A DNA stretch of 61,461 nucleotides, filler included, from Candidatus Nezhaarchaeota archaeon WYZ-LMO8 (GTDB taxonomy: Archaea; Thermoproteota; Methanomethylicia; Nezhaarchaeales; WYZ-LMO8): assembly GCA_004347965.1 (NCBI GenBank). It is 7 parts of 7 records of this genome, joined end to end, with 100 filler letters (N's around TTAATTAATTAA, not from the genome) between each part and the next. Parts side by side here need not be neighbours in the genome. Positions count along the whole stretch, not along the records: positions 28,220 to 36,692 come from QNVF01000043.1; 6 more parts are not named here. One strand, 5' to 3'. The notes under the pieces are model-generated. The model was not told the DNA's origin. It ran no database searches and saw only the letters and a program-made list of their open reading frames with translations. How positions within the stretch are numbered: position 1 is the first letter of the stretch; each line of letters starts with the position of its first letter. The translations under genes were made by a program, and so were the position numbers. This document shows positions 9,483-53,785 of this stretch, in pieces.

Positions 9483-9582
9483 NNNNNNNNNNNNNNNNNN
9501 NNNNNNNNNNNNNNNNNNNNNNNNNNTTAATTAATTAANNNNNNNNNNNNNNNNNNNNNNNNNNNNNNNNNNNNNNNNNNNN
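9483..9582. other. Artificial contig spacer
   Basis: N44-TTAATTAATTAA-N44 (stops in all six frames). Confidence 0.99.
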
Positions 9583-18934: not shown

Positions 18935-19034
18935 NNNNNNNNNNNNNNNNNNNNNNNNNNNNNNNNNNNNNNNNNNNNTTAATTAATTAANNNNNNNNNN
19001 NNNNNNNNNNNNNNNNNNNNNNNNNNNNNNNNNN
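18935..19034. other. Artificial contig spacer
   Basis: N44-TTAATTAATTAA-N44. Confidence 0.99.
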
Positions 19035-28119: not shown

Positions 28120-28219
28120 NNNNNNNNNNNNNNNNNNNNNNNNNNNNNNNNNNNNNNNNNNNNTTAATTAATTAANNNNNNNNNNNNNNNNNNNNNNNNN
28201 NNNNNNNNNNNNNNNNNNN
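28120..28219. other. Artificial contig spacer
   Basis: N44-TTAATTAATTAA-N44. Confidence 0.99.
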
Positions 28220-28297
28220 GGGCCCGTAGCTCAGTATGGATGGAGCACCGGCCTCCGGAGCCGGAGGTCCCGGGTTCAAGTCCCGGCGGGCCCGCCA
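28220..28297 (+). tRNA. tRNA-Arg(CCG)
   Basis: Arm CCGGC-CTCCGGA-GCCGG; encoded CCA; starts at the first base of the contig. Confidence 0.95.
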
Positions 28298-28516
28298 AAG
28301 AAGTTTGGCTTATTTTCACAAATAGGACTTATTTTTCTCTTCTGTTTTTCTGATTTAGAGCTGTTCTGGGGATTAACCTTGGCTATGTGGAGGTGAACTC
28401 TGAGTAGTGCGTTAAGGAGCTTTGTCTCAGATACGCTCCTTAACGACTAAGGTTTTATATTCTGGCTTAGGCATAAAAGTCTAATATCTTTAATGTTTTA
28501 AGGTTAAGCTGCTTGG

Positions 28517-28822
28517 TCATTTTGTATAGCAGCTTTTAATCATGATTATTGATATTGATATCAATATTAGGCTGTATATTAAGAGGATTAGCAGCGGCTT
28601 ATCTGAGAGTGAGGATAGCTCATTAAGCCATTTATTCATGACTTCTAATCCCTCATAAGCAGTCATGTTAAAATCTGCTACACGCAATATAGCATTCCCT
28701 ATCATATCTCGAGTAAGGGAGGTTGTAACAGCCTTTAACCCAAAAAGATAGAGCGATCCTAACGCACCCAGAACACCTAATGCTAAAATCACAAAGCCAA
28801 GTAATCGACACAATCTAGACAC
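28517..28822 (-). CDS. Hypothetical two-TM membrane protein
   Basis: Two hydrophobic segments. Confidence 0.55.
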   Translation of the reverse strand: MSRLCRLLGFVILALGVLGALGSLYLFGLKAVTTSLTRDMIGNAILRVADFNMTAYEGLEVMNKWLNELSSLSDKPLLILLIYSLILISISIIMIKSCYTK

Positions 28823-28931
28823 TGCTAAACACCATAAATTATTTGTCTCACTTTAAGAATTATTAATAATTTGTCTTAGTGAAAGCTGTATAGCCAGTAT
28901 TTACTACGGCGCTTCAAATACCTCGACTATA

Positions 28932-29496
28932 ATGACTGATATGCTCGCTTCTCCAAGCACTTTTACTTCATCTCGAGACGTCGTGGTTCTTCCGGTGTTA
29001 AAGAAGGGCAGTGAGGGCAAGGTTTACTTATTGTGGAAGGATCTCCATAAGCTCAGCGAATTCTACTTTGATGAGTGCGGTAGCAGCGGCTGGATGCCCA
29101 AAGTCAGCATCGCTTATGGAGAAATAATCGTAATTGTGTGTCCAAGCATTCTATACAGATTAGCCGACGTAGGAAAGCCCACTATAAGCGGCATTGAAGT
29201 CTTGTGTAACGAGACCTTAACAATTAAGGCCGAAGCCTACGACGAGCAGAGCGCTTTACATAAAGTCTTTCTCGTTTACAGCATAAACAACTCCCCGTGG
29301 AATTACAAGAAAATGGATATCGCAAGAAGGTACGTAATGGAGCCAGTTGGGGTATGGCTTGTGAGAAGAGCTCTATATTACTGAAGTATCGGTAGGGATC
29401 GGTAGAGTGGAGTTCTACGTGGTTGCTATAGATAACGTAGGAAACTACGAAGTAATGAACGTCTACAGACATAGAACTTTCTATGCGGAAACCTAA
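28932..29496 (+). pseudogene. Frameshifted remnant of a surface protein
   Basis: ORF 28932-29384 continues in another frame as LYITEVSVGIGRVEFYVVAIDNVGNYEV. Confidence 0.5.
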
Positions 29497-29689
29497 TTCG
29501 ACAAGCTTAAGCCCATTTTACTTGAAGCACTCAGACGTCGTTCACGGCGATGGACAGGATATAGTCGTAGCTCTAAACACCGACAGCGATACAAGTGGTA
29601 GTCGTTCATTTACGGATTAGCTGGCATTACACTAACTCTTAAATATTCCAATGCTCATACTAATCGTGTTAATGAAGAGTGACTAGGCA

Positions 29690-30385
29690 ATGGAGTCTTT
29701 GAAGAGAAAGTTCTTAGAACTGCTGGAAAAGGACTTGGAGTTTCGCTATGCTGTGGCGGGTTACTTAGGGTTATCTGAGATACTCAAGAGACTCGACGTA
29801 CTAGCTGAAGAGCAGATTAAGATAGCCAAAGAGCAGATGGAGCTTAGAAGAGAGCAGATAAGATTAGCCGAAGAACAAGTTAAACTTAGAGAGGAGCAGA
29901 CAAGGATATGGGTTGAGATAGCTGGACTTAGAGAGGACTTCAACAGGATGAGAGAGGACTTTAACAGAATGTATAGGCAATTGGATATTAGGCTTACTAG
30001 GGTTGAGCGCACGTTAGAGAAGATAACATTAGATATTGGGGAGGAGGCTAGGATCATAGTTAAGTATAGGCTTAGAGAGATGGGCTACGATGTCGAAGTA
30101 GGCTCATTAATATTGCCGGAAGCTGAGATAAACATTTACGGAGTCTCGGATGAGATTTGCGTTGTAGGTGAAGCGTCCGTTAGAGCGTCTGCGAACATAA
30201 TCGACAAGATAAATGATAGTCTCGAGAAGCTAAGAACTCAATACCCAGACAAGCTTAGATCGAAAATACTGAAGGTCGTTTACACTAGCCTAGCTATGCC
30301 AGACCTAATTGAGAGAGCCGAGAAGGAGGATATATGGGTTTTAAAGGCTACAGGCGATACAGTTAAGCCCAAAATTTACAGTTAA
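29690..30385 (+). CDS. Archaeal coiled-coil repeat protein with PD-(D/E)XK-like C-terminal domain
   Basis: FLELLEKDLEFRYAVAGYLG N-terminus; LxEEQ and REDFNRM heptads; EINIYG..VGEA. Confidence 0.8.
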   Translation: MESLKRKFLELLEKDLEFRYAVAGYLGLSEILKRLDVLAEEQIKIAKEQMELRREQIRLAEEQVKLREEQTRIWVEIAGLREDFNRMREDFNRMYRQLDIRLTRVERTLEKITLDIGEEARIIVKYRLREMGYDVEVGSLILPEAEINIYGVSDEICVVGEASVRASANIIDKINDSLEKLRTQYPDKLRSKILKVVYTSLAMPDLIERAEKEDIWVLKATGDTVKPKIYS

Positions 30386-30583
30386 ATCGACTTAATAGCC
30401 ACGATTTACTTTCTAAATTTCAAAAATAGAAAGTTTAGCGAAGTTGACTTGAATTATGACTTTCAGAGTTACTTCCTCATCATCCATACATTGTAACTCA
30501 CGATCAATCTCGATGCACTGTACATATTCGTGAAATAGGGAGTGGCTAAAAGCATTATTAATAGGTGGACTTCGTAATGTTTT

Positions 30584-30787
30584 ATGGTGGGTGCGTTGAA
30601 CCTCTCAACTGATAAGATTAGAGAAGCTTTCAAAGTCGTGTACCTTTCTAGAGAGAGGTATAGGACGACTAAAAGAGACTTGCAGAGCTCGCTGAGATTA
30701 GGCGCCTTAGCGAGGGAGCTTAGCAGCTCGTATTTAGAGGTGATTGAGTGGAAGGAGTGGAAGAGGGTCTTAGCGCTGAGGACCTAG
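30584..30787 (+). CDS. Small hypothetical protein overlapping the nucleotidyltransferase gene
   Basis: 67-aa ORF behind a TATA-like box. Confidence 0.5.
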   Translation: MVGALNLSTDKIREAFKVVYLSRERYRTTKRDLQSSLRLGALARELSSSYLEVIEWKEWKRVLALRT

Positions 30788-31377
30788 CAGAAAAGCTCTA
30801 TAAAGAATTTGAGAAAAGCATACTACCAAAGCTCTTAGAGATTCCAGAGGAGACCAAGAGGTACCTCTACTTCATGGCGTGGCTCAATGAGGAGCTAGAA
30901 AGGAGAGATCTAGGTCGAGTAATAGTAACCGGCGGATTTGCTGTCGAAGTGTATACGGGGAGAATGCACAGGACCATGGACGTCGACGTAATAGTAGAAG
31001 GCGTTAATGCCATCAAAGTGGTTGAAACCTTCCTCACAAAGTTCTCAGAGAGAATAGGTCGAGGCTACCTACCGAGGTATGAAGTTTTGCAGCTAAAGTC
31101 TATAGACATAGTGTCCCCGATCTATGGGAAGAAAGCTCAGCCGACGAAGCTGCTGGTGGAAGGGCTTAGCATCTACTTAGAGCCCGTGGAGGAGCTAATA
31201 ATCACCTACTTAGCCGGCTGGAAGTACTGGAGTGCAACCGAGGATAGAGACAAAGCCCTCTGGTTATTCATAGCGTGGAGGGACAGACTAAACCATGACC
31301 ATCTCGAGAAAAGATCTAGAGAAGAGAGAGTGGAAGACTACTTAGAGCTCTTGAAGAAGAATGCGAATAGAATTTAG
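30748..31377 (+). CDS. Pol-beta-superfamily nucleotidyltransferase (DUF6036-like)
   Basis: VTGGFAV...RTMDVDVI signature; GAGGTGA RBS. Confidence 0.75.
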   Translation: MEGVEEGLSAEDLAEKLYKEFEKSILPKLLEIPEETKRYLYFMAWLNEELERRDLGRVIVTGGFAVEVYTGRMHRTMDVDVIVEGVNAIKVVETFLTKFSERIGRGYLPRYEVLQLKSIDIVSPIYGKKAQPTKLLVEGLSIYLEPVEELIITYLAGWKYWSATEDRDKALWLFIAWRDRLNHDHLEKRSREERVEDYLELLKKNANRI

Positions 31378-31721
31378 AAAGGAGAAAGGTAGTTAACACT
31401 TCCTCAAGCAAGCCACCATCACATCTCTGGTCGTTACTATTAGCATGCGCACCTAGAAGCTCATAGCAGCCGTGATGAAACCTTGAAATCTGGGGGATCA
31501 GTCTCAATTTCACTAACCTATTGCGCCCCTTAGATTACAAAATCTCCCAATAGCTTTATGCTTCACTGACACTAACCATAGACTTTAAGCAACACATGCA
31601 CTTAACTGATTCTATAATCGCGTGAGGTTTAATATCTAGACAGTCACCCTCAAATGAGCTATTTCCTCTTCACATCAAGGCTCTTTAAGCGCAAGTTGCC
31701 ATGTTGAAACTTATCAGAGCT

Positions 31722-34415
31722 TCATTGTTTAGAGCCCAAGTTCATTGCTATTCTCCTTAGAAGCTCTTCCTCGCTCACATCTAACGCGTGAAGCCAAGTC
31801 TCTAACTGCCACTCGACCGGGATAACTGATATGCCCGCTTCTTCGAGCACTTTTACTTCATCTCTCGAGTTCTCGTAGTTCCACTTAGGCATTATGAACT
31901 TCTTAACCTTGACCCTCTTAGTCTTAATAGCCGCTATTATCTTACCTGCCCCTCTCCAACCTAGCCCCCCAACAGGACCAATCCTACCTTTGATGTCGGT
32001 TTTACCGGTCATTACGATTGATGGGCTTACCGACAACCCCGAAAGCTCTGATATCGCCGCTACACTAAGTGCAACTCCAAGACTTGGGCCTGAGACTCCT
32101 CCCCCTGGAATTCCCTCAAGGGGGCTTACTACTTGGAATCTGAAGTCGTAATCGCTTATATCGATGCCGAGCTTCTTATTCAAGTAAAGCTTTATGTAGT
32201 CCACAGCGTTTTGTGCACTTTCAATAACGCTCACGTCTTCGACGGTGGTCATAGGGCTGATTGCTACAGATTTTGCAGCTCCAGTTACTGTGACTTTACC
32301 GGTACCTTTACTAATCGCACACTCTACTATCAGTAGCATTCCTCTTCTACCTTGAGGATCTGTTGCAAGTCCTAGAGCTACTCCAGGTCCTTGAACCACC
32401 ATGCTTTCTTGGGCATCCATGAGCTCCCTGTCGACCTCGTGCTCTAAAAGCTCTGCGGCCTTTTCGAAGTGATATAACCTTATCTTGTAAGACTCAGGTG
32501 TTATTCTTGATAATAAGTCCGCATCGATAGGCCCCATGAGTTCTCTTATCCTCTCTAAGTCCTCTTTGTAAACCTGGTACACCTCAACAAGTCTTATCTT
32601 GTCCCCTGCCTTCATAGCCTTAACGTATTCGCTTGCAGCTACGACCTCCTGGCTTCTCAACCTATTAGCTTCTCTTATTACTTCAGCTATGACCCTCGGT
32701 GAGACAACCCTAAACCTCTTAATTATGCTTAAAACTCCTTCGGGTGTAACCTCTTCGTGCAAGTGAAACATGTATTGCCTCAAATGTACTCTTACCACGT
32801 CAAGTCTTTCAGAGTCATTTCTAGGAAGCGGTACCTCGATTATGTAGGGCTCAAACCTGTTTAAGACAGCTTCATCTATTGCATCAAGCCTGTTAGTTGC
32901 AGCTATCACTATCACGTTTTCAAGAGGTTGCAAACCGTCGAGCTCCGTCAGTATTTGTGCTGTTAATCTATCGCTTACTGGATCTCCTCTCCTTTTATTA
33001 GCTATAACGTCAAATTCGTCAAAGAATATTATGCTTGGAGCATTTCTTCTAGCAAGCTGAAATAGGTCTTTAATGTTCTTCTCAGGGTCCCCAACCCATT
33101 TCGCATTCATAAGTAGTTGAGCTGCTGGAACGTAAAAGAACGTTGCATCACACTCTTTCGCTATGGCTTTTGACAAGTAAGTCTTACCACATCCTGGTTC
33201 TCCCCACAGCAAGAAGCCTTTGGGTGGAACCCAATTTAACTTACTGGCAAGTTCTGGTTTAAGGCTGAGAGATATGATCTTAAAGACCTTCTCTTTAATT
33301 CCAAAGAGCCCGCCTACGTCTTCATAACTTACAGCTGGCTTTACCTTGAGGACGGAGCTTAAGACCTCAGTACTCTTCTCCTGCTCCACGTAACCTCTTA
33401 GCTCCCTAGCTATAAGCTTGAAGTCATCTATGGTGACTTTGTATGAGAATTGCTCACTTCTTGGAGCACCTAGCATCCTAAACAGCTTCTCTCTTAATGG
33501 CTCAACCTTTCTTACTCTAACCTTGTTACAGGCATCTATGATGTCAAAGGGGGTGAGTTGAGTCTGCCTATAGGAGCTTACAGACCTTTCAAGCACAGTC
33601 ATTACTTCTTCAGGGTCTAAGTACGTCCATCCATATTTCTTGAGCTCAGCTTTTAAGACGGCAAGTAACATTTCTCGAGTTATGTTTTGATCAAGATCTA
33701 TTACGTATGCTCTTCTCCTGATGTCTTCTCTTATAGATTCAAACATGTTCGTAGCAGCTATGATCACTATCCTCTCATTGGTATTAATTACTCTATTAAG
33801 GTACTCTATGAAGACATCCTGAACTCTTACGTCTTCTCTATCAGCTCCATACAAAGGCTTATCAACCTTCATACCGATGCTATGGAATTCGTCAAAGAAT
33901 ATGACGCTTGGTGTGTCCTCAGCTCTCTTGAATACAATTGCAAGATTTCTTATCGATTGACCATATAGCGGATGAAATATCTCATCACTATTGACAACTA
34001 TTGGCTGAACATTAATTCCCAACTTCAAACCATAAACTACAGCTTCTCTAAGACAAACCTCCGCTAACAAAGACTTTCCAGAACCTGTTGAGCCCTTTAA
34101 GATAAAGAACTTTGGAGGAGGTGCGCCTTTAAATAGCTCCTTCACAGTAGGGTCCTCTATCACATGATACGCTATAGCTGTCATTATTGTTTGAAACTCC
34201 TTATCTCTACCTATCAAATCGTCCTTGGTATTAGGGAACTTCTTGTTAAGTTCATGAAGTCTCTTCTTGAGCTTCTTTGGCGTTAACTTTGCATTCCTCC
34301 ATCTCCTGTACTCTCTATTGGATAAGTATAGAGGGAGTGATAGGAGGGTCCTTAACTTAGGTCTTAAGAGCCACCAAGGTTTCTTCTCTTCAATCTCTCT
34401 CATCGATAAACTCAT
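31722..34415 (-). CDS. Tandem AAA+ ATPase fused to a C-terminal Lon (S16) protease domain
   Basis: D1 GSTGSGKS/IFFDE/AATN; D2 GEPGCGKT/KWVG/IFFDE/AATNR; protease GPSLG, MTG, PVGGL..GK; GGAGG RBS before ATG 34415. Confidence 0.88.
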   Translation of the reverse strand: MSLSMREIEEKKPWWLLRPKLRTLLSLPLYLSNREYRRWRNAKLTPKKLKKRLHELNKKFPNTKDDLIGRDKEFQTIMTAIAYHVIEDPTVKELFKGAPPPKFFILKGSTGSGKSLLAEVCLREAVVYGLKLGINVQPIVVNSDEIFHPLYGQSIRNLAIVFKRAEDTPSVIFFDEFHSIGMKVDKPLYGADREDVRVQDVFIEYLNRVINTNERIVIIAATNMFESIREDIRRRAYVIDLDQNITREMLLAVLKAELKKYGWTYLDPEEVMTVLERSVSSYRQTQLTPFDIIDACNKVRVRKVEPLREKLFRMLGAPRSEQFSYKVTIDDFKLIARELRGYVEQEKSTEVLSSVLKVKPAVSYEDVGGLFGIKEKVFKIISLSLKPELASKLNWVPPKGFLLWGEPGCGKTYLSKAIAKECDATFFYVPAAQLLMNAKWVGDPEKNIKDLFQLARRNAPSIIFFDEFDVIANKRRGDPVSDRLTAQILTELDGLQPLENVIVIAATNRLDAIDEAVLNRFEPYIIEVPLPRNDSERLDVVRVHLRQYMFHLHEEVTPEGVLSIIKRFRVVSPRVIAEVIREANRLRSQEVVAASEYVKAMKAGDKIRLVEVYQVYKEDLERIRELMGPIDADLLSRITPESYKIRLYHFEKAAELLEHEVDRELMDAQESMVVQGPGVALGLATDPQGRRGMLLIVECAISKGTGKVTVTGAAKSVAISPMTTVEDVSVIESAQNAVDYIKLYLNKKLGIDISDYDFRFQVVSPLEGIPGGGVSGPSLGVALSVAAISELSGLSVSPSIVMTGKTDIKGRIGPVGGLGWRGAGKIIAAIKTKRVKVKKFIMPKWNYENSRDEVKVLEEAGISVIPVEWQLETWLHALDVSEEELLRRIAMNLGSKQ

Positions 34416-35205
34416 ACCAGCCCCTCCAGTGAACAACTCCATACAATATGGCTAAACCAATAAACATGATAAGCGATATTATGAGGTTCCCAAGCTTAAG
34501 GTCTATTGAGAGTGTAGCGGCTAATGAGTACGCAAGCACACCAACAGTTATGAGAACCACAGCAGCACATGATAATGCAAAAGCGTAAAACATGTATCTT
34601 AGCACTAGGGCTATACTGTCATTAATGCTCCATCTACCAGTCTTTCTCACCTTCATGTCCTTGAGGTCGAGATAGGCGGTTAAGCCAAAGAGTAGTATGA
34701 AAACTGCATAGACCACAATCCCCCAAGGCTCCACAGACCATAAGCTGAGGGAAACAGGTATCTTACTAATAATAGATTGCGAGTCTATCTCTGACGTCAA
34801 GGGGATTACAAGCTTAAATGTTATGTTCCCTGGACAATGGTATGTATTAAGCCTTACCTCACCTTCCTGCGAATACTTTGTAAGTGTTAAGTTAAAGGAT
34901 CCTATCGAAGAAAATAAGAGCTCGCACATGCTCCTCTTGTAGGTCGTTGGATTAATTATCGTAAGAGTTACAATGCTTCTAAAACCTTCACGAAATGCTT
35001 CCTCAACTTTAATTGAAACATCCGGCGGGATTAAGTAATTGAGAGTTACTACATAAGTTCCCTGAACCTTAATCATGAGGAGTTCCCCACTTCTAAGTAC
35101 AACGTCGTCACTTATCGCAGTAATCATTGGTTCTTGTGCACATACCATTGTGAGGCTCATGAATATCAAGATTAGTGATGATGTGAACATGAAGCGTGAT
35201 ATCAA
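34390..35205 (-). CDS. Membrane protein: signal peptide, extracellular domain, three C-terminal TM helices
   Basis: Hydropathy pattern; stop overlaps the AAA-Lon start. Confidence 0.8.
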   Translation of the reverse strand: MISRFMFTSSLILIFMSLTMVCAQEPMITAISDDVVLRSGELLMIKVQGTYVVTLNYLIPPDVSIKVEEAFREGFRSIVTLTIINPTTYKRSMCELLFSSIGSFNLTLTKYSQEGEVRLNTYHCPGNITFKLVIPLTSEIDSQSIISKIPVSLSLWSVEPWGIVVYAVFILLFGLTAYLDLKDMKVRKTGRWSINDSIALVLRYMFYAFALSCAAVVLITVGVLAYSLAATLSIDLKLGNLIISLIMFIGLAILYGVVHWRGWYEFIDERD

Positions 35206-35492
35206 ATCATTTATCCCCTTAATCTCACACTTGACGGGGCTCCATAAAAACTGTTCTTCAAGTCTTTCTAGTTCATTGCATCCTTTAAATGCAAGATAGT
35301 TGCTCTAAAACAGCTACTTCTTAGTTTCCTTTTCTCAAGAAACTTTCTTAGGACATCTTGCTTTTTAGTAAATCATCATTGCCAGGGAAACTTCATGCTA
35401 AATAATAGTTAGTTGAAAGATTTATTACCTTAGAAGAATCATTAAATAAACCTTAAAGTCAAAGCTAATAGTATGAAGTCGAGGTTTTAGCC

Positions 35493-36692
35493 ATGAAAGT
35501 TCTTTCAACTCGTGAGAAGGTAGGTGCATTAAAAGAAATCGTAGGCCCTGAGAACGTCATAGACAGCAAGCCAGCTTTACTCATATATTCTAAGGATGCG
35601 AGCCCGATGAGAGGTAAGGTGCCCATAGCAGTTGTGAGACCATCATCTACGGAAGAGGTACAGAGGATAATCTTATGGGCTAACGAGACCAGGACTCCTC
35701 TATATCCTAGAAGCGGTGGCACAAGCTTGTGGGGAGCGATTCCCGTTGTTGAGGGAAGTGTCGTCGTAGACCTGTCAAGAATGAACAGAGTAATAAACAT
35801 TGACGAAAGAAACCTTGTGTGCGTTGTTGAACCAGCCATTACCTTCGGAGAGCTGGAGAATATCTTAGCGAAGCGGGGGCTAAGGTTCATAATGAGCCCA
35901 GAAAACGGAATGGGGGCAACTGTCGGCGGAAACTTTGCAAGTCATGGAACTGGTTGGGGGGCTGGGCCTAACTTCTCAAATCAAGGAGATTGTGTGTTAG
36001 GCTGTAAAGTAGTCTTACCAACAGGAGAGATCCTTACAACTGGAAGTATGGCTAATCCAAACGCTCATGGACACTTCTATCGCTACGCTCTTGGCCACGA
36101 CCTAACAGGGCTCTTCTGCGGCTCCGAAGGGACCCTTGGAATCATAACAGAGTTGGCGCTCAAAATCGAGGAGATGCCTGGAGCTCTGGGCTTTGCAACT
36201 TTTGGTTATGATGACCTAGAGGCTGCTGGAAAAGCACTGTACAGGGTGAGGAGGATGAGAATACCGACTATCTATGCTTACTTATCTACTAGCTGGACGC
36301 TCAACATGCTCTTCCCTGAGAAGGCTCCTTGGCCCCATACAATAAAGTTCGTAGTAGGGGCTAATACCAAAGAGATCATGGAAATCGAGCTTAACAGGTT
36401 AATGGATGCTGCAGGTAAAGATGGAACCTATCTAGGTCCTCAATTAGCTGAAGAGACTTGGAAGGAGAGGTATAGATGGGTAGGTCTCTTCGGCTACAAG
36501 CTTGGGATGAGAGCAGCCCTTCCGATGCACATACCCATAGGAGAAGTAGGATATTACCTCAAGGAGATAGAGAAGACCTCTCGCTATGTAAAGGATAGAT
36601 ATGGACTGAACGTTGGGGCAGGAGGCTTCATGTGCGATCGAAGTGTTGTAGTCATAGTAGTTACTTACTTCGATCCAAGCAGTAGGCAGGAA
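35493..36692 (+). CDS. FAD-binding oxidoreductase, GlcD/D-lactate dehydrogenase family (3' truncated)
   Basis: VVRPSSTEEV, PRSGGTSLWG, ATVGG, GSEGTLGIITE. Confidence 0.9.
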
Positions 36693-36792
36693 NNNNNNNN
36701 NNNNNNNNNNNNNNNNNNNNNNNNNNNNNNNNNNNNTTAATTAATTAANNNNNNNNNNNNNNNNNNNNNNNNNNNNNNNNNNNNNNNNNNNN
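36693..36792. other. Artificial contig spacer
   Basis: N44-TTAATTAATTAA-N44. Confidence 0.99.
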
Positions 36793-45194: not shown

Positions 45195-45294
45195 NNNNNN
45201 NNNNNNNNNNNNNNNNNNNNNNNNNNNNNNNNNNNNNNTTAATTAATTAANNNNNNNNNNNNNNNNNNNNNNNNNNNNNNNNNNNNNNNNNNNN
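45195..45294. other. Artificial contig spacer
   Basis: N44-TTAATTAATTAA-N44. Confidence 0.99.
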
Positions 45295-53685: not shown

Positions 53686-53785
53686 NNNNNNNNNNNNNNN
53701 NNNNNNNNNNNNNNNNNNNNNNNNNNNNNTTAATTAATTAANNNNNNNNNNNNNNNNNNNNNNNNNNNNNNNNNNNNNNNNNNNN
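53686..53785. other. Artificial contig spacer
   Basis: N44-TTAATTAATTAA-N44. Confidence 0.99.

Follow-up and report, generated by a model that had tools for sequence, protein, structure and literature searches.

The sequence studied here (the window) is a 61,461-nucleotide stretch of DNA from Candidatus Nezhaarchaeota archaeon WYZ-LMO8 (NCBI GenBank assembly GCA_004347965.1). A gene on its minus strand, at 31722..34415, encodes two AAA ATPase modules and a Lon (S16) protease domain in one chain. This single-chain fusion, with all of its catalytic residues kept, is real and conserved. The gene is paired with that of a predicted membrane protein directly upstream (34390..35205, minus strand), and together the two probably encode a membrane-tethered, FtsH-like, ATP-dependent two-ring protease of new architecture. 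Confidence in this combined reading is moderate.

Domain structure and active sites

The protease lies in an open reading frame (ORF) of 906 residues at 31722..34442 on the minus strand. The start at 34415 is Met10 of this frame and agrees with the 897-residue gene calls in close relatives; from it the gene (31722..34415) encodes 897 residues and a stop codon, and relatives have been called at 893-929 residues. Protease residue numbers follow the 906-residue ORF, and helix positions from its AlphaFold2 (AF2) model follow the 897-residue numbering. Coordinates given below are on the minus strand unless marked (+).

Pfam AAA matched the protein in two stretches (E 1.2e-54) and Pfam Lon_C matched residues 674-878 (E 6.9e-17, 62.1 bits against a cut-off of 21.1), values that chance would not produce. 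The chain begins with an all-helical basic domain (residues 10-100, 34143..34415), which carries the conserved motif WW..R...LR / YRRWRNA.L and AF2 helices at 3-59. AAA module D1 (residues 101-335, 33438..34142) is a divergent member of the classical clade and the second of the Pfam AAA stretches (67.4 bits). Module D2 (residues 336-625, 32568..33437) also belongs to the classical clade, and the best PDB matches, VAT and p97, align here. A helical linker (residues 626-673, 32424..32567; AF2 helices 632-636, 647-657 and 660-671) contains the invariant H649 and joins D2 to the Lon (S16) proteolytic domain (residues 674-906, 31725..32423), which is the part matched by Lon_C.

A first-pass annotation of this DNA had described two complete AAA modules followed by an S16 domain, and every motif that it named was located by script. 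D1 contains Walker A GSTGSGKS (117-124), pore loop PLYG (158-161), Walker B IFFDE (181-185), AATN (229-232) and DIRRRA (240-245). The corresponding motifs of D2 are GEPGCGKT (414-421), KWVG (448-451), IFFDE (472-476), AATN (514-517) and VLNRFE (526-531). The catalytic dyad was found exactly where it had been placed, with the codon of Ser787, in GPSLG, at 32082..32084 and that of Lys834 at 31941..31943, 47 residues apart. The protease was also correctly described as having no transmembrane (TM) segment; its maximum Kyte-Doolittle mean over 19 residues is 1.55.

The best PDB match of the Lon domain was the P domain of A. fulgidus LonB (phmmer, E 5.9e-13), and the alignment places Ser787 and Lys834 on the Ser and Lys of that chain. 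The spacing of 47 arises because a four-residue insert (GWRG) precedes the Lys relative to LonB. Against NCBIfam models the domain scored 61 bits with spore LonB, 60 with LonA and 57 with LonB.

Conservation was counted in an alignment of 38 family members with 27-93% identity to the window protein. The D1 Walker A Lys was present in 38/38, and the Walker B Asp and Glu in 37/38 and 35/38, respectively; the pore-loop Tyr was kept in 29, sensor-1 Asn in 27, and each of the three Arg in 36. D2 was stricter: the Walker A Lys, the Walker B Asp-Glu pair, sensor-1 Asn517 and Arg529 were each found in all 38, and an aromatic pore loop in 31. In the Lon domain Ser787 was invariant (38/38), Lys834 was kept in 37 and the Pro preceding the Ser in 36. 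The Ser-Lys spacing was 47 in 28 of the 38 and ranged from 44 to 55.

Reality and spread of the fusion

The window is made up of seven contigs (C35-C41) of one genome, the assembly of which has 78 contigs, 1.35 Mb and 93% completeness. Because these are separate contigs joined by runs of N (9483-9582, 18935-19034, 28120-28219, 36693-36792, 45195-45294 and 53686-53785), gene context is valid only inside each piece. The protease gene lies wholly within one contig of 8473 bases (C38, window 28220-36692). The stretch is contained in hot-spring metagenomes, and its close relatives have Nezhaarchaeota or Nezhaarchaeales as source labels.

A search of 5.8 billion proteins showed the three-module architecture to be recurrent across archaeal protein clusters. 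AAA together with Lon_C was found in 81 of the best 120 clusters, in proteins of about 850-1015 residues; the rest were four partial and 35 ordinary Cdc48 clusters. The 81 came from Nezhaarchaeota, Methanomethylicia/Verstraetearchaeota, Bathyarchaeia, Hecatellales, metagenome-assembled genomes labelled Sulfolobales and Brockarchaeota, and also from Odin-, Hod- and Promethearchaeota. In an exhaustive search of 50%-identity representatives, a further 18 proteins aligned in a single stretch over all three modules (29-40% identity). Two archaeal clusters in the ESM Atlas (118 and 110 members) carry AAA and Lon_C in 97-98% of members. Databases name the family only "AAA family ATPase", "SpoVK/Ycf46/Vps4 family" or "hypothetical". 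As a separate observation, longer relatives of 1120-1261 residues (P0134, P0138 and an ESM Atlas cluster of 93 members at about 1140 residues) share the N-terminal W..R...LR motif and the AAA/Lon_C architecture. The Atlas labels them bacterial (Thermodesulfobacteriota), and the cluster is a lead only.

The C-terminal 346 residues were used as the query against 401 sampled Thermoproteota genomes, with a strong match defined as E < 1e-30. The family was found in 54 of these, in open frames of 902-957 residues in 50 cases. The remaining four had frames of 335, 335, 655 and 755+197 residues, in assemblies of 70-220 contigs. The gene was single-copy in every positive genome. Identity to the window protein fell with kinship (genus 72-91%, family 76-80%, order about 61%, class 60-65%), which fits a vertically kept housekeeping gene.

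Contigs assembled from a hot-spring DNA run of another study gave an outside view of the same locus. One, at 31769-33506, takes in Lon, D2 and the beginning of D1; a second, at 33842-34772, takes in D1, the gene start and the partner. Both show 0 differences. Misassembly, named beforehand as something that could undo the fusion, did not occur here, since the fusion recurs in independent records and these outside contigs bridge the module junctions.

The membrane partner

Loci were compared in 20 of the 54 positive genomes (long contigs with a spread of identity, with 16 kb fetched around the gene) and in the window, giving 21 loci. In all 21 the next gene upstream is that of a protein of 124-298 residues which starts with a hydrophobic helix and has TM helices towards its C-terminus, and in 17 this gene is co-directional with the protease. 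The other flanking genes are ordinary and variable across loci.

In the window the partner gene (34390..35205) encodes 271 residues and a stop codon, and its 3' end overlaps the protease start. The protein starts with a hydrophobic, signal-like helix, and hydrophobic segments lie at residues 5-23, 163-181, 206-224 and 241-259. The AF2 model (mean predicted local distance difference test, pLDDT, 77.8) has strands within 27-137 and helices at 160-187, 194-230 and 239-260. The strands form a predicted extracytoplasmic beta-sandwich (residues 27-137, 34795..35127). They are followed by a core of three TM helices (residues 160-260, 34426..34728), which includes a conserved basic cytoplasmic loop after TM1. 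Invariant or near-invariant positions of the core in the alignment are Y166, F173, L179, R191, W192, D196, A199, Y207 and Y255. The chain ends in an acidic tail (residues 261-271, 34393..34425; consensus WRGWYELIDEED), in which R261 and D268 are invariant among 15 sequences and which the predicted topology places in the cytoplasm.

No family match for the window partner was found in Pfam, NCBIfam or PADLOC. Foldseek of the partner model against the PDB returned nothing at E <= 0.001, only generic Ig/cohesin-like rows.

The partners fall into two sequence clusters. The window's type (10 loci) has three TM helices and the acidic tail, and overlaps the protease start by 14-53 nucleotides (nt) as called in 10 of 10. 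The second type (11 loci) is co-directional in seven, at gaps of -23 to +127 nt. The beta-sandwich is absent from the 124-134-residue partners of two genomes, which consist of the TM core and tail only, and from the fused forms of Asgard archaea.

Protease and partner form a two-gene unit, with a convergent neighbour (30748..31377, +) on one side and a divergent one (from 35493, +) on the other. An alternative in-frame ATG of the protease is found at 34400, 8 nt upstream of the partner stop. With the partner stop 8 nt past a protease ATG and inside the longer frame, the junction gives the usual picture of translational coupling. A programmed frameshift fusing the overlapping genes was considered and set aside, as no slippery site was evident in the junction sequence. 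One metatranscriptome library from another study contained contigs on both genes with 1-6 differences, covering parts of them only, and one of these spans 34260-34544, across the junction. These contigs are a weak hint of expression or co-transcription, given that DNA carry-over is possible and that a contig need not be a single transcript.

Fused forms in Asgard archaea

Seven Asgard proteins of 989-1015 residues carry an N-terminal extension with three hydrophobic helices and the loop and tail motifs of the partner, and the tail of this extension runs directly into the N-terminal KPWW motif of the protease. The partner alignment matched one of them (P0044, residues 8-122) with a probability of 98.4% in hhalign (E 4.3e-15, 110 columns). 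The family was found in 8 of 201 sampled Asgard genomes; the complete frames among the close-tier matches were 1014-1019 residues in four of four, and the C-terminal query gave no match in Promethearchaeum syntrophicum MK-D1. With the three-TM core covalently joined to the protease, the Asgard forms should be permanent membrane proteins.

The first-pass annotation had proposed a self-contained enzyme. With a membrane protein upstream in every locus compared and fused to the protease in Asgard archaea, that part of it is probably wrong.

Relationships of the AAA modules

The AF2 model of the protease (pLDDT 82.5) matched p97/Cdc48 chains best in Foldseek, over about 620-650 columns at 25-27% identity, an alignment long enough to match the tandem D1-D2. 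Against the Cdc48 model TIGR01243 the whole protein scored 214.1 bits, below the cut-off of 802.65, and was collinear with it over residues 67-679. The best NCBIfam match of D1 alone was the D1 region of CDC48 (47 bits). For D2 alone the scores were 175 bits (PAN), 171.5 (D2 part of CDC48), 126.5 (FtsH) and 120 (CdvC).

In the best trees neither module was placed with Cdc48 D1 or D2, PAN or Vps4. A quick tree was calculated from 93 AAA modules, 20 of 113 rows having been dropped (both modules of ten Cdc48 proteins). Here the family's D1 formed one long-branched clade (support 100 in the Shimodaira-Hasegawa-like approximate likelihood ratio test), and its D2 fell outside the group of Cdc48 D1, Cdc48 D2, PAN and Vps4 (support 92). 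Branching orders inside D1 and inside D2 mirror each other in this tree, which fits one old fusion. A careful tree used 55 of the 113 rows, leaving out long single rows and extra Cdc48 and family rows. In it a branch (94/100) has D1 and D2 jointly on one side, subject to a long-branch warning. Approximately unbiased tests rejected none of the alternatives: D2 with Cdc48 D2 (p 0.40), D1 with Cdc48 D1 (p 0.27), D2 with Vps4 (p 0.24) and D2 with PAN (p 0.38).

Both modules thus appear, on sequence comparison, to be a separate lineage of the classical clade, with their placement outside the Cdc48 clades not statistically secured. The best tree hints that a separate duplication, unconnected with Cdc48, may have given rise to the pair. 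A resemblance to Vps4, suggested beforehand from the Arg-finger regions, stands for that motif only; D2 scores nearer to PAN and the CDC48 D2 part than to CdvC, and the Vps4 clade excludes both modules in the trees.

Comparison with known systems

Like Cdc48, VAT and p97, the family has tandem classical AAA modules (D1-D2) with aromatic pore loops in both rings. In contrast, its N-terminus is helical rather than a Cdc48-type N domain; CDC48_N-type domains (PF02359/PF02933) are absent from the precomputed Pfam lists of all family members and present in the Cdc48 matches (P0086-P0120). Its Arg-finger regions lack the RPGRFD form found in the Cdc48 of the same genome, and a protease is fused C-terminally, where Cdc48 would dock to the 20S proteasome.

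Archaeal LonB shares with the family a C-terminal S16 domain with the Ser-Lys dyad at homologous positions, and both are (probably) membrane-associated, with the ATPase and protease parts cytoplasmic. The available sections of a 2022 Lon classification describe LonB as having one Lon-type AAA+ module with an inserted TM anchor and an Asp before the Ser, and LonA as having a Pro before the catalytic Ser, with exactly 42 residues between Ser and Lys in both (PMC9569914). The family, unlike LonB, has two classical AAA modules and a Pro preceding the Ser, its Ser and Lys are separated by 46 residues, and its probable anchor is on a separate chain. It shares the A-type active-site motif, with its Pro, with LonA, which differs in its long N domain, its single Lon-type AAA+ module and its solubility. 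With an A-type Pro and 46 residues between Ser and Lys, the family fits neither LonA nor LonB as those sections define them. The whole protein scored 59.8 bits with LonB (TIGR00764, cut-off 516.6), 59.7 with spore LonB (cut-off 723) and 80.8 with LonA (TIGR00763, below the cut-off of 608).

FtsH is the working analogy: it unites an AAA motor of the classical clade with a protease in a single chain, is attached to the membrane from the N-terminal side and has an extracytoplasmic domain. This layout is copied in the fused proteins of Asgard archaea. FtsH is unlike the family in having one AAA ring and a zinc metalloprotease. The whole protein scored 142.6 bits with the FtsH model TIGR01241 (cut-off 600), via the AAA part only, and no M41 peptidase was among the Pfam matches listed for the protease. 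Two stacked ATPase rings feed a serine protease chamber in ClpAP and ClpCP, as proposed for this family; there the ATPase and the protease are separate proteins, of other AAA+ clades and with the ClpP fold (S14).

That the architecture was not recognised as a characterised one agrees with the literature. No description of a tandem-AAA Lon fusion was found in the full text searched, subscription journals and supplements lying outside it. A 2008 survey of Lon domain architectures lists, in its available part, seven types, none with two AAA modules, and only subfamilies A, B, C and BA are discussed in the available sections of the 2022 classification (PMC9569914). The word "Lon" is absent from a paper on the Cdc48 family (PMC5070193) and from one on ESCRT (PMC11188069).

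Other proteolytic genes and neighbouring features

The same genome carries three proteasome-family genes, a CdvC-like gene and two Cdc48 paralogues. Each paralogue is broken at contig ends (C72, C2, C17 and C54) in the same conserved stretch, where a repeat between the two probably interrupted the assembly. The only PAN-like gene (C25:4263-5195) is divergent, at 189 bits against a cut-off of 500. Among 31 sampled genomes of the phylum, PAN was over the cut-off in seven and the family was present in five, without overlap, in a sample too small for this to mean anything.

The only other Lon_C gene of the genome (L002:1234-2067, contig C42) encodes 277 residues with an N-terminal TM segment, a Lon_C match of 46 bits and no ATPase. 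It would be a stand-alone membrane Lon peptidase; frames of 267-367 residues like it occur in many relatives.

LonB over the curated cut-off was found neither in this genome nor in any of 61 genomes of the class or 401 of the phylum. LonB-like frames of 735-782 residues (344-371 bits) were found in 22 genomes of the phylum sample, together with a second type of 783-844 residues (141-163 bits). The 22 genomes with the 735-782-residue gene do not overlap with the 54 carrying the family, an either/or pattern that is a hint only, the groups having been defined post hoc and the kin being non-independent. Lon diversity in Thermoproteota looks under-described.

A genus without the AAA-Lon family encodes a protein of at least 849 residues (G008:C1:329500-334000), in which a long multi-TM region at the N-terminus precedes two classical AAA modules and a protease domain is lacking. 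Among the ORFs around the gene pair (window 28932-31377 and 35493-36692), three of 150, 231 and 209 residues had no Pfam or NCBIfam match; the one of 231 residues has many coiled-coil-like repeats. The divergent gene, from 35493, encodes a GlcD-like oxidase linked to flavin adenine dinucleotide and is cut by the contig end.

Proposed mechanism and alternatives

The large subunit would be a hexamer, because all related AAA and Lon proteins are hexamers, with two classical-clade AAA rings stacked on a Lon Ser-Lys chamber. Substrates would be threaded through D1 and then D2 into the chamber and cut there. The small subunit, with its signal peptide, ectodomain, three TM helices and acidic tail, may keep the protease, by its basic helical N-domain, on the inner side of the membrane, the tail docking on that domain. 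This would turn the entry pore towards the membrane, an arrangement like that of FtsH, and the likely task would be to control the quality of proteins in or near the membrane or to turn them over in a regulated way.

Several observations weigh against a tethered protease of this kind. The second partner type has two TM helices and lacks the acidic tail, and in four loci of one genus it is divergently oriented. An hhalign comparison of the two partner types gave a probability of 23.6%, too low to show homology. A fused form of the Rosetta-stone kind is a sign of functional linkage and not necessarily of an anchor role. Finally, two family-positive genomes (G073 and G332) also carry a Lon-like gene of approximately 800 residues.

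In the strongest alternative the two-ring protease is soluble and self-contained, and its membrane neighbour, rather than being an anchor, serves it specifically as substrate, sensor or regulator, in the manner of regulated proteolysis of the anti-sigma type. The window protease without a TM segment, the tail-less second partner type and an ectodomain that could sense the envelope are all in keeping with it. It does not readily account for the Asgard proteins, in which the three-TM core is covalently joined to the protease, or for the ectodomain being dispensable, in two genomes and the Asgard forms, while the TM core and tail are kept. On balance it is unlikely, though it retains real weight.

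A match of D2 to PADLOC IetA models (129.8 bits) and a protease match to NCBIfam IteA (121.7 bits) suggested an ATPase-protease pair like IetAS, with a role in defence against viruses or stress. Such matches are generic for classical AAA modules and far below the cut-off (121.7 versus 510); PADLOC gave no defence protease or BrxL-type match, and the gene is single-copy with identity declining with kinship and ordinary, variable flanks. A defence role is very improbable.

Equally hard to credit is an unfoldase or segregase in which the Lon-like domain serves only assembly or self-processing, as in RadA or ComM. A RadA model does match the Lon domain weakly (17.9 bits), but scores with true Lon models are 57-61 bits, and the Ser (38/38), Lys (37/38) and preceding Pro (36/38) are kept.

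In a 78-contig genome seen through seven contigs joined by N runs, one might suspect that faulty assembly or gene calling had merged a Cdc48-like gene with a Lon gene; the probability of this is practically negligible with the gene inside one 8473-base contig, the same architecture in hundreds of independent records and outside-study contigs bridging the junctions with 0 differences.

The membrane-tethered two-ring protease thus remains the preferred reading of the gene pair. A wider claim is put forward more tentatively, at somewhat less than even confidence: TACK and Asgard archaea may have a third, unrecognised class of energy-dependent protease, an FtsH analogue made of a two-ring classical AAA motor and a Lon chamber, with a three-TM subunit docked by its acidic tail on the basic N-domain (or fused to the protease, in Asgard lineages), an ectodomain possibly coupling outside events to proteolysis inside, and AAA modules for which a duplication of their own is hinted.

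Implications

FtsH is stated to be absent from archaea in a review (PMC4343526), and only two ATP-dependent proteases are attributed to archaea in a review. If the proposal is true, the family adds a third energy-dependent protease to archaea. No characterised AAA+ protease is known to combine two classical AAA rings and a Lon chamber in one covalent unit. The split form, with the anchor in trans, and the Asgard fused form are a natural experiment on the membrane targeting of AAA proteases, and the thermophilic source should suit structural work. With no LonB over the cut-off in the 401 genomes, quality control of membrane proteins may fall to the family in these lineages.

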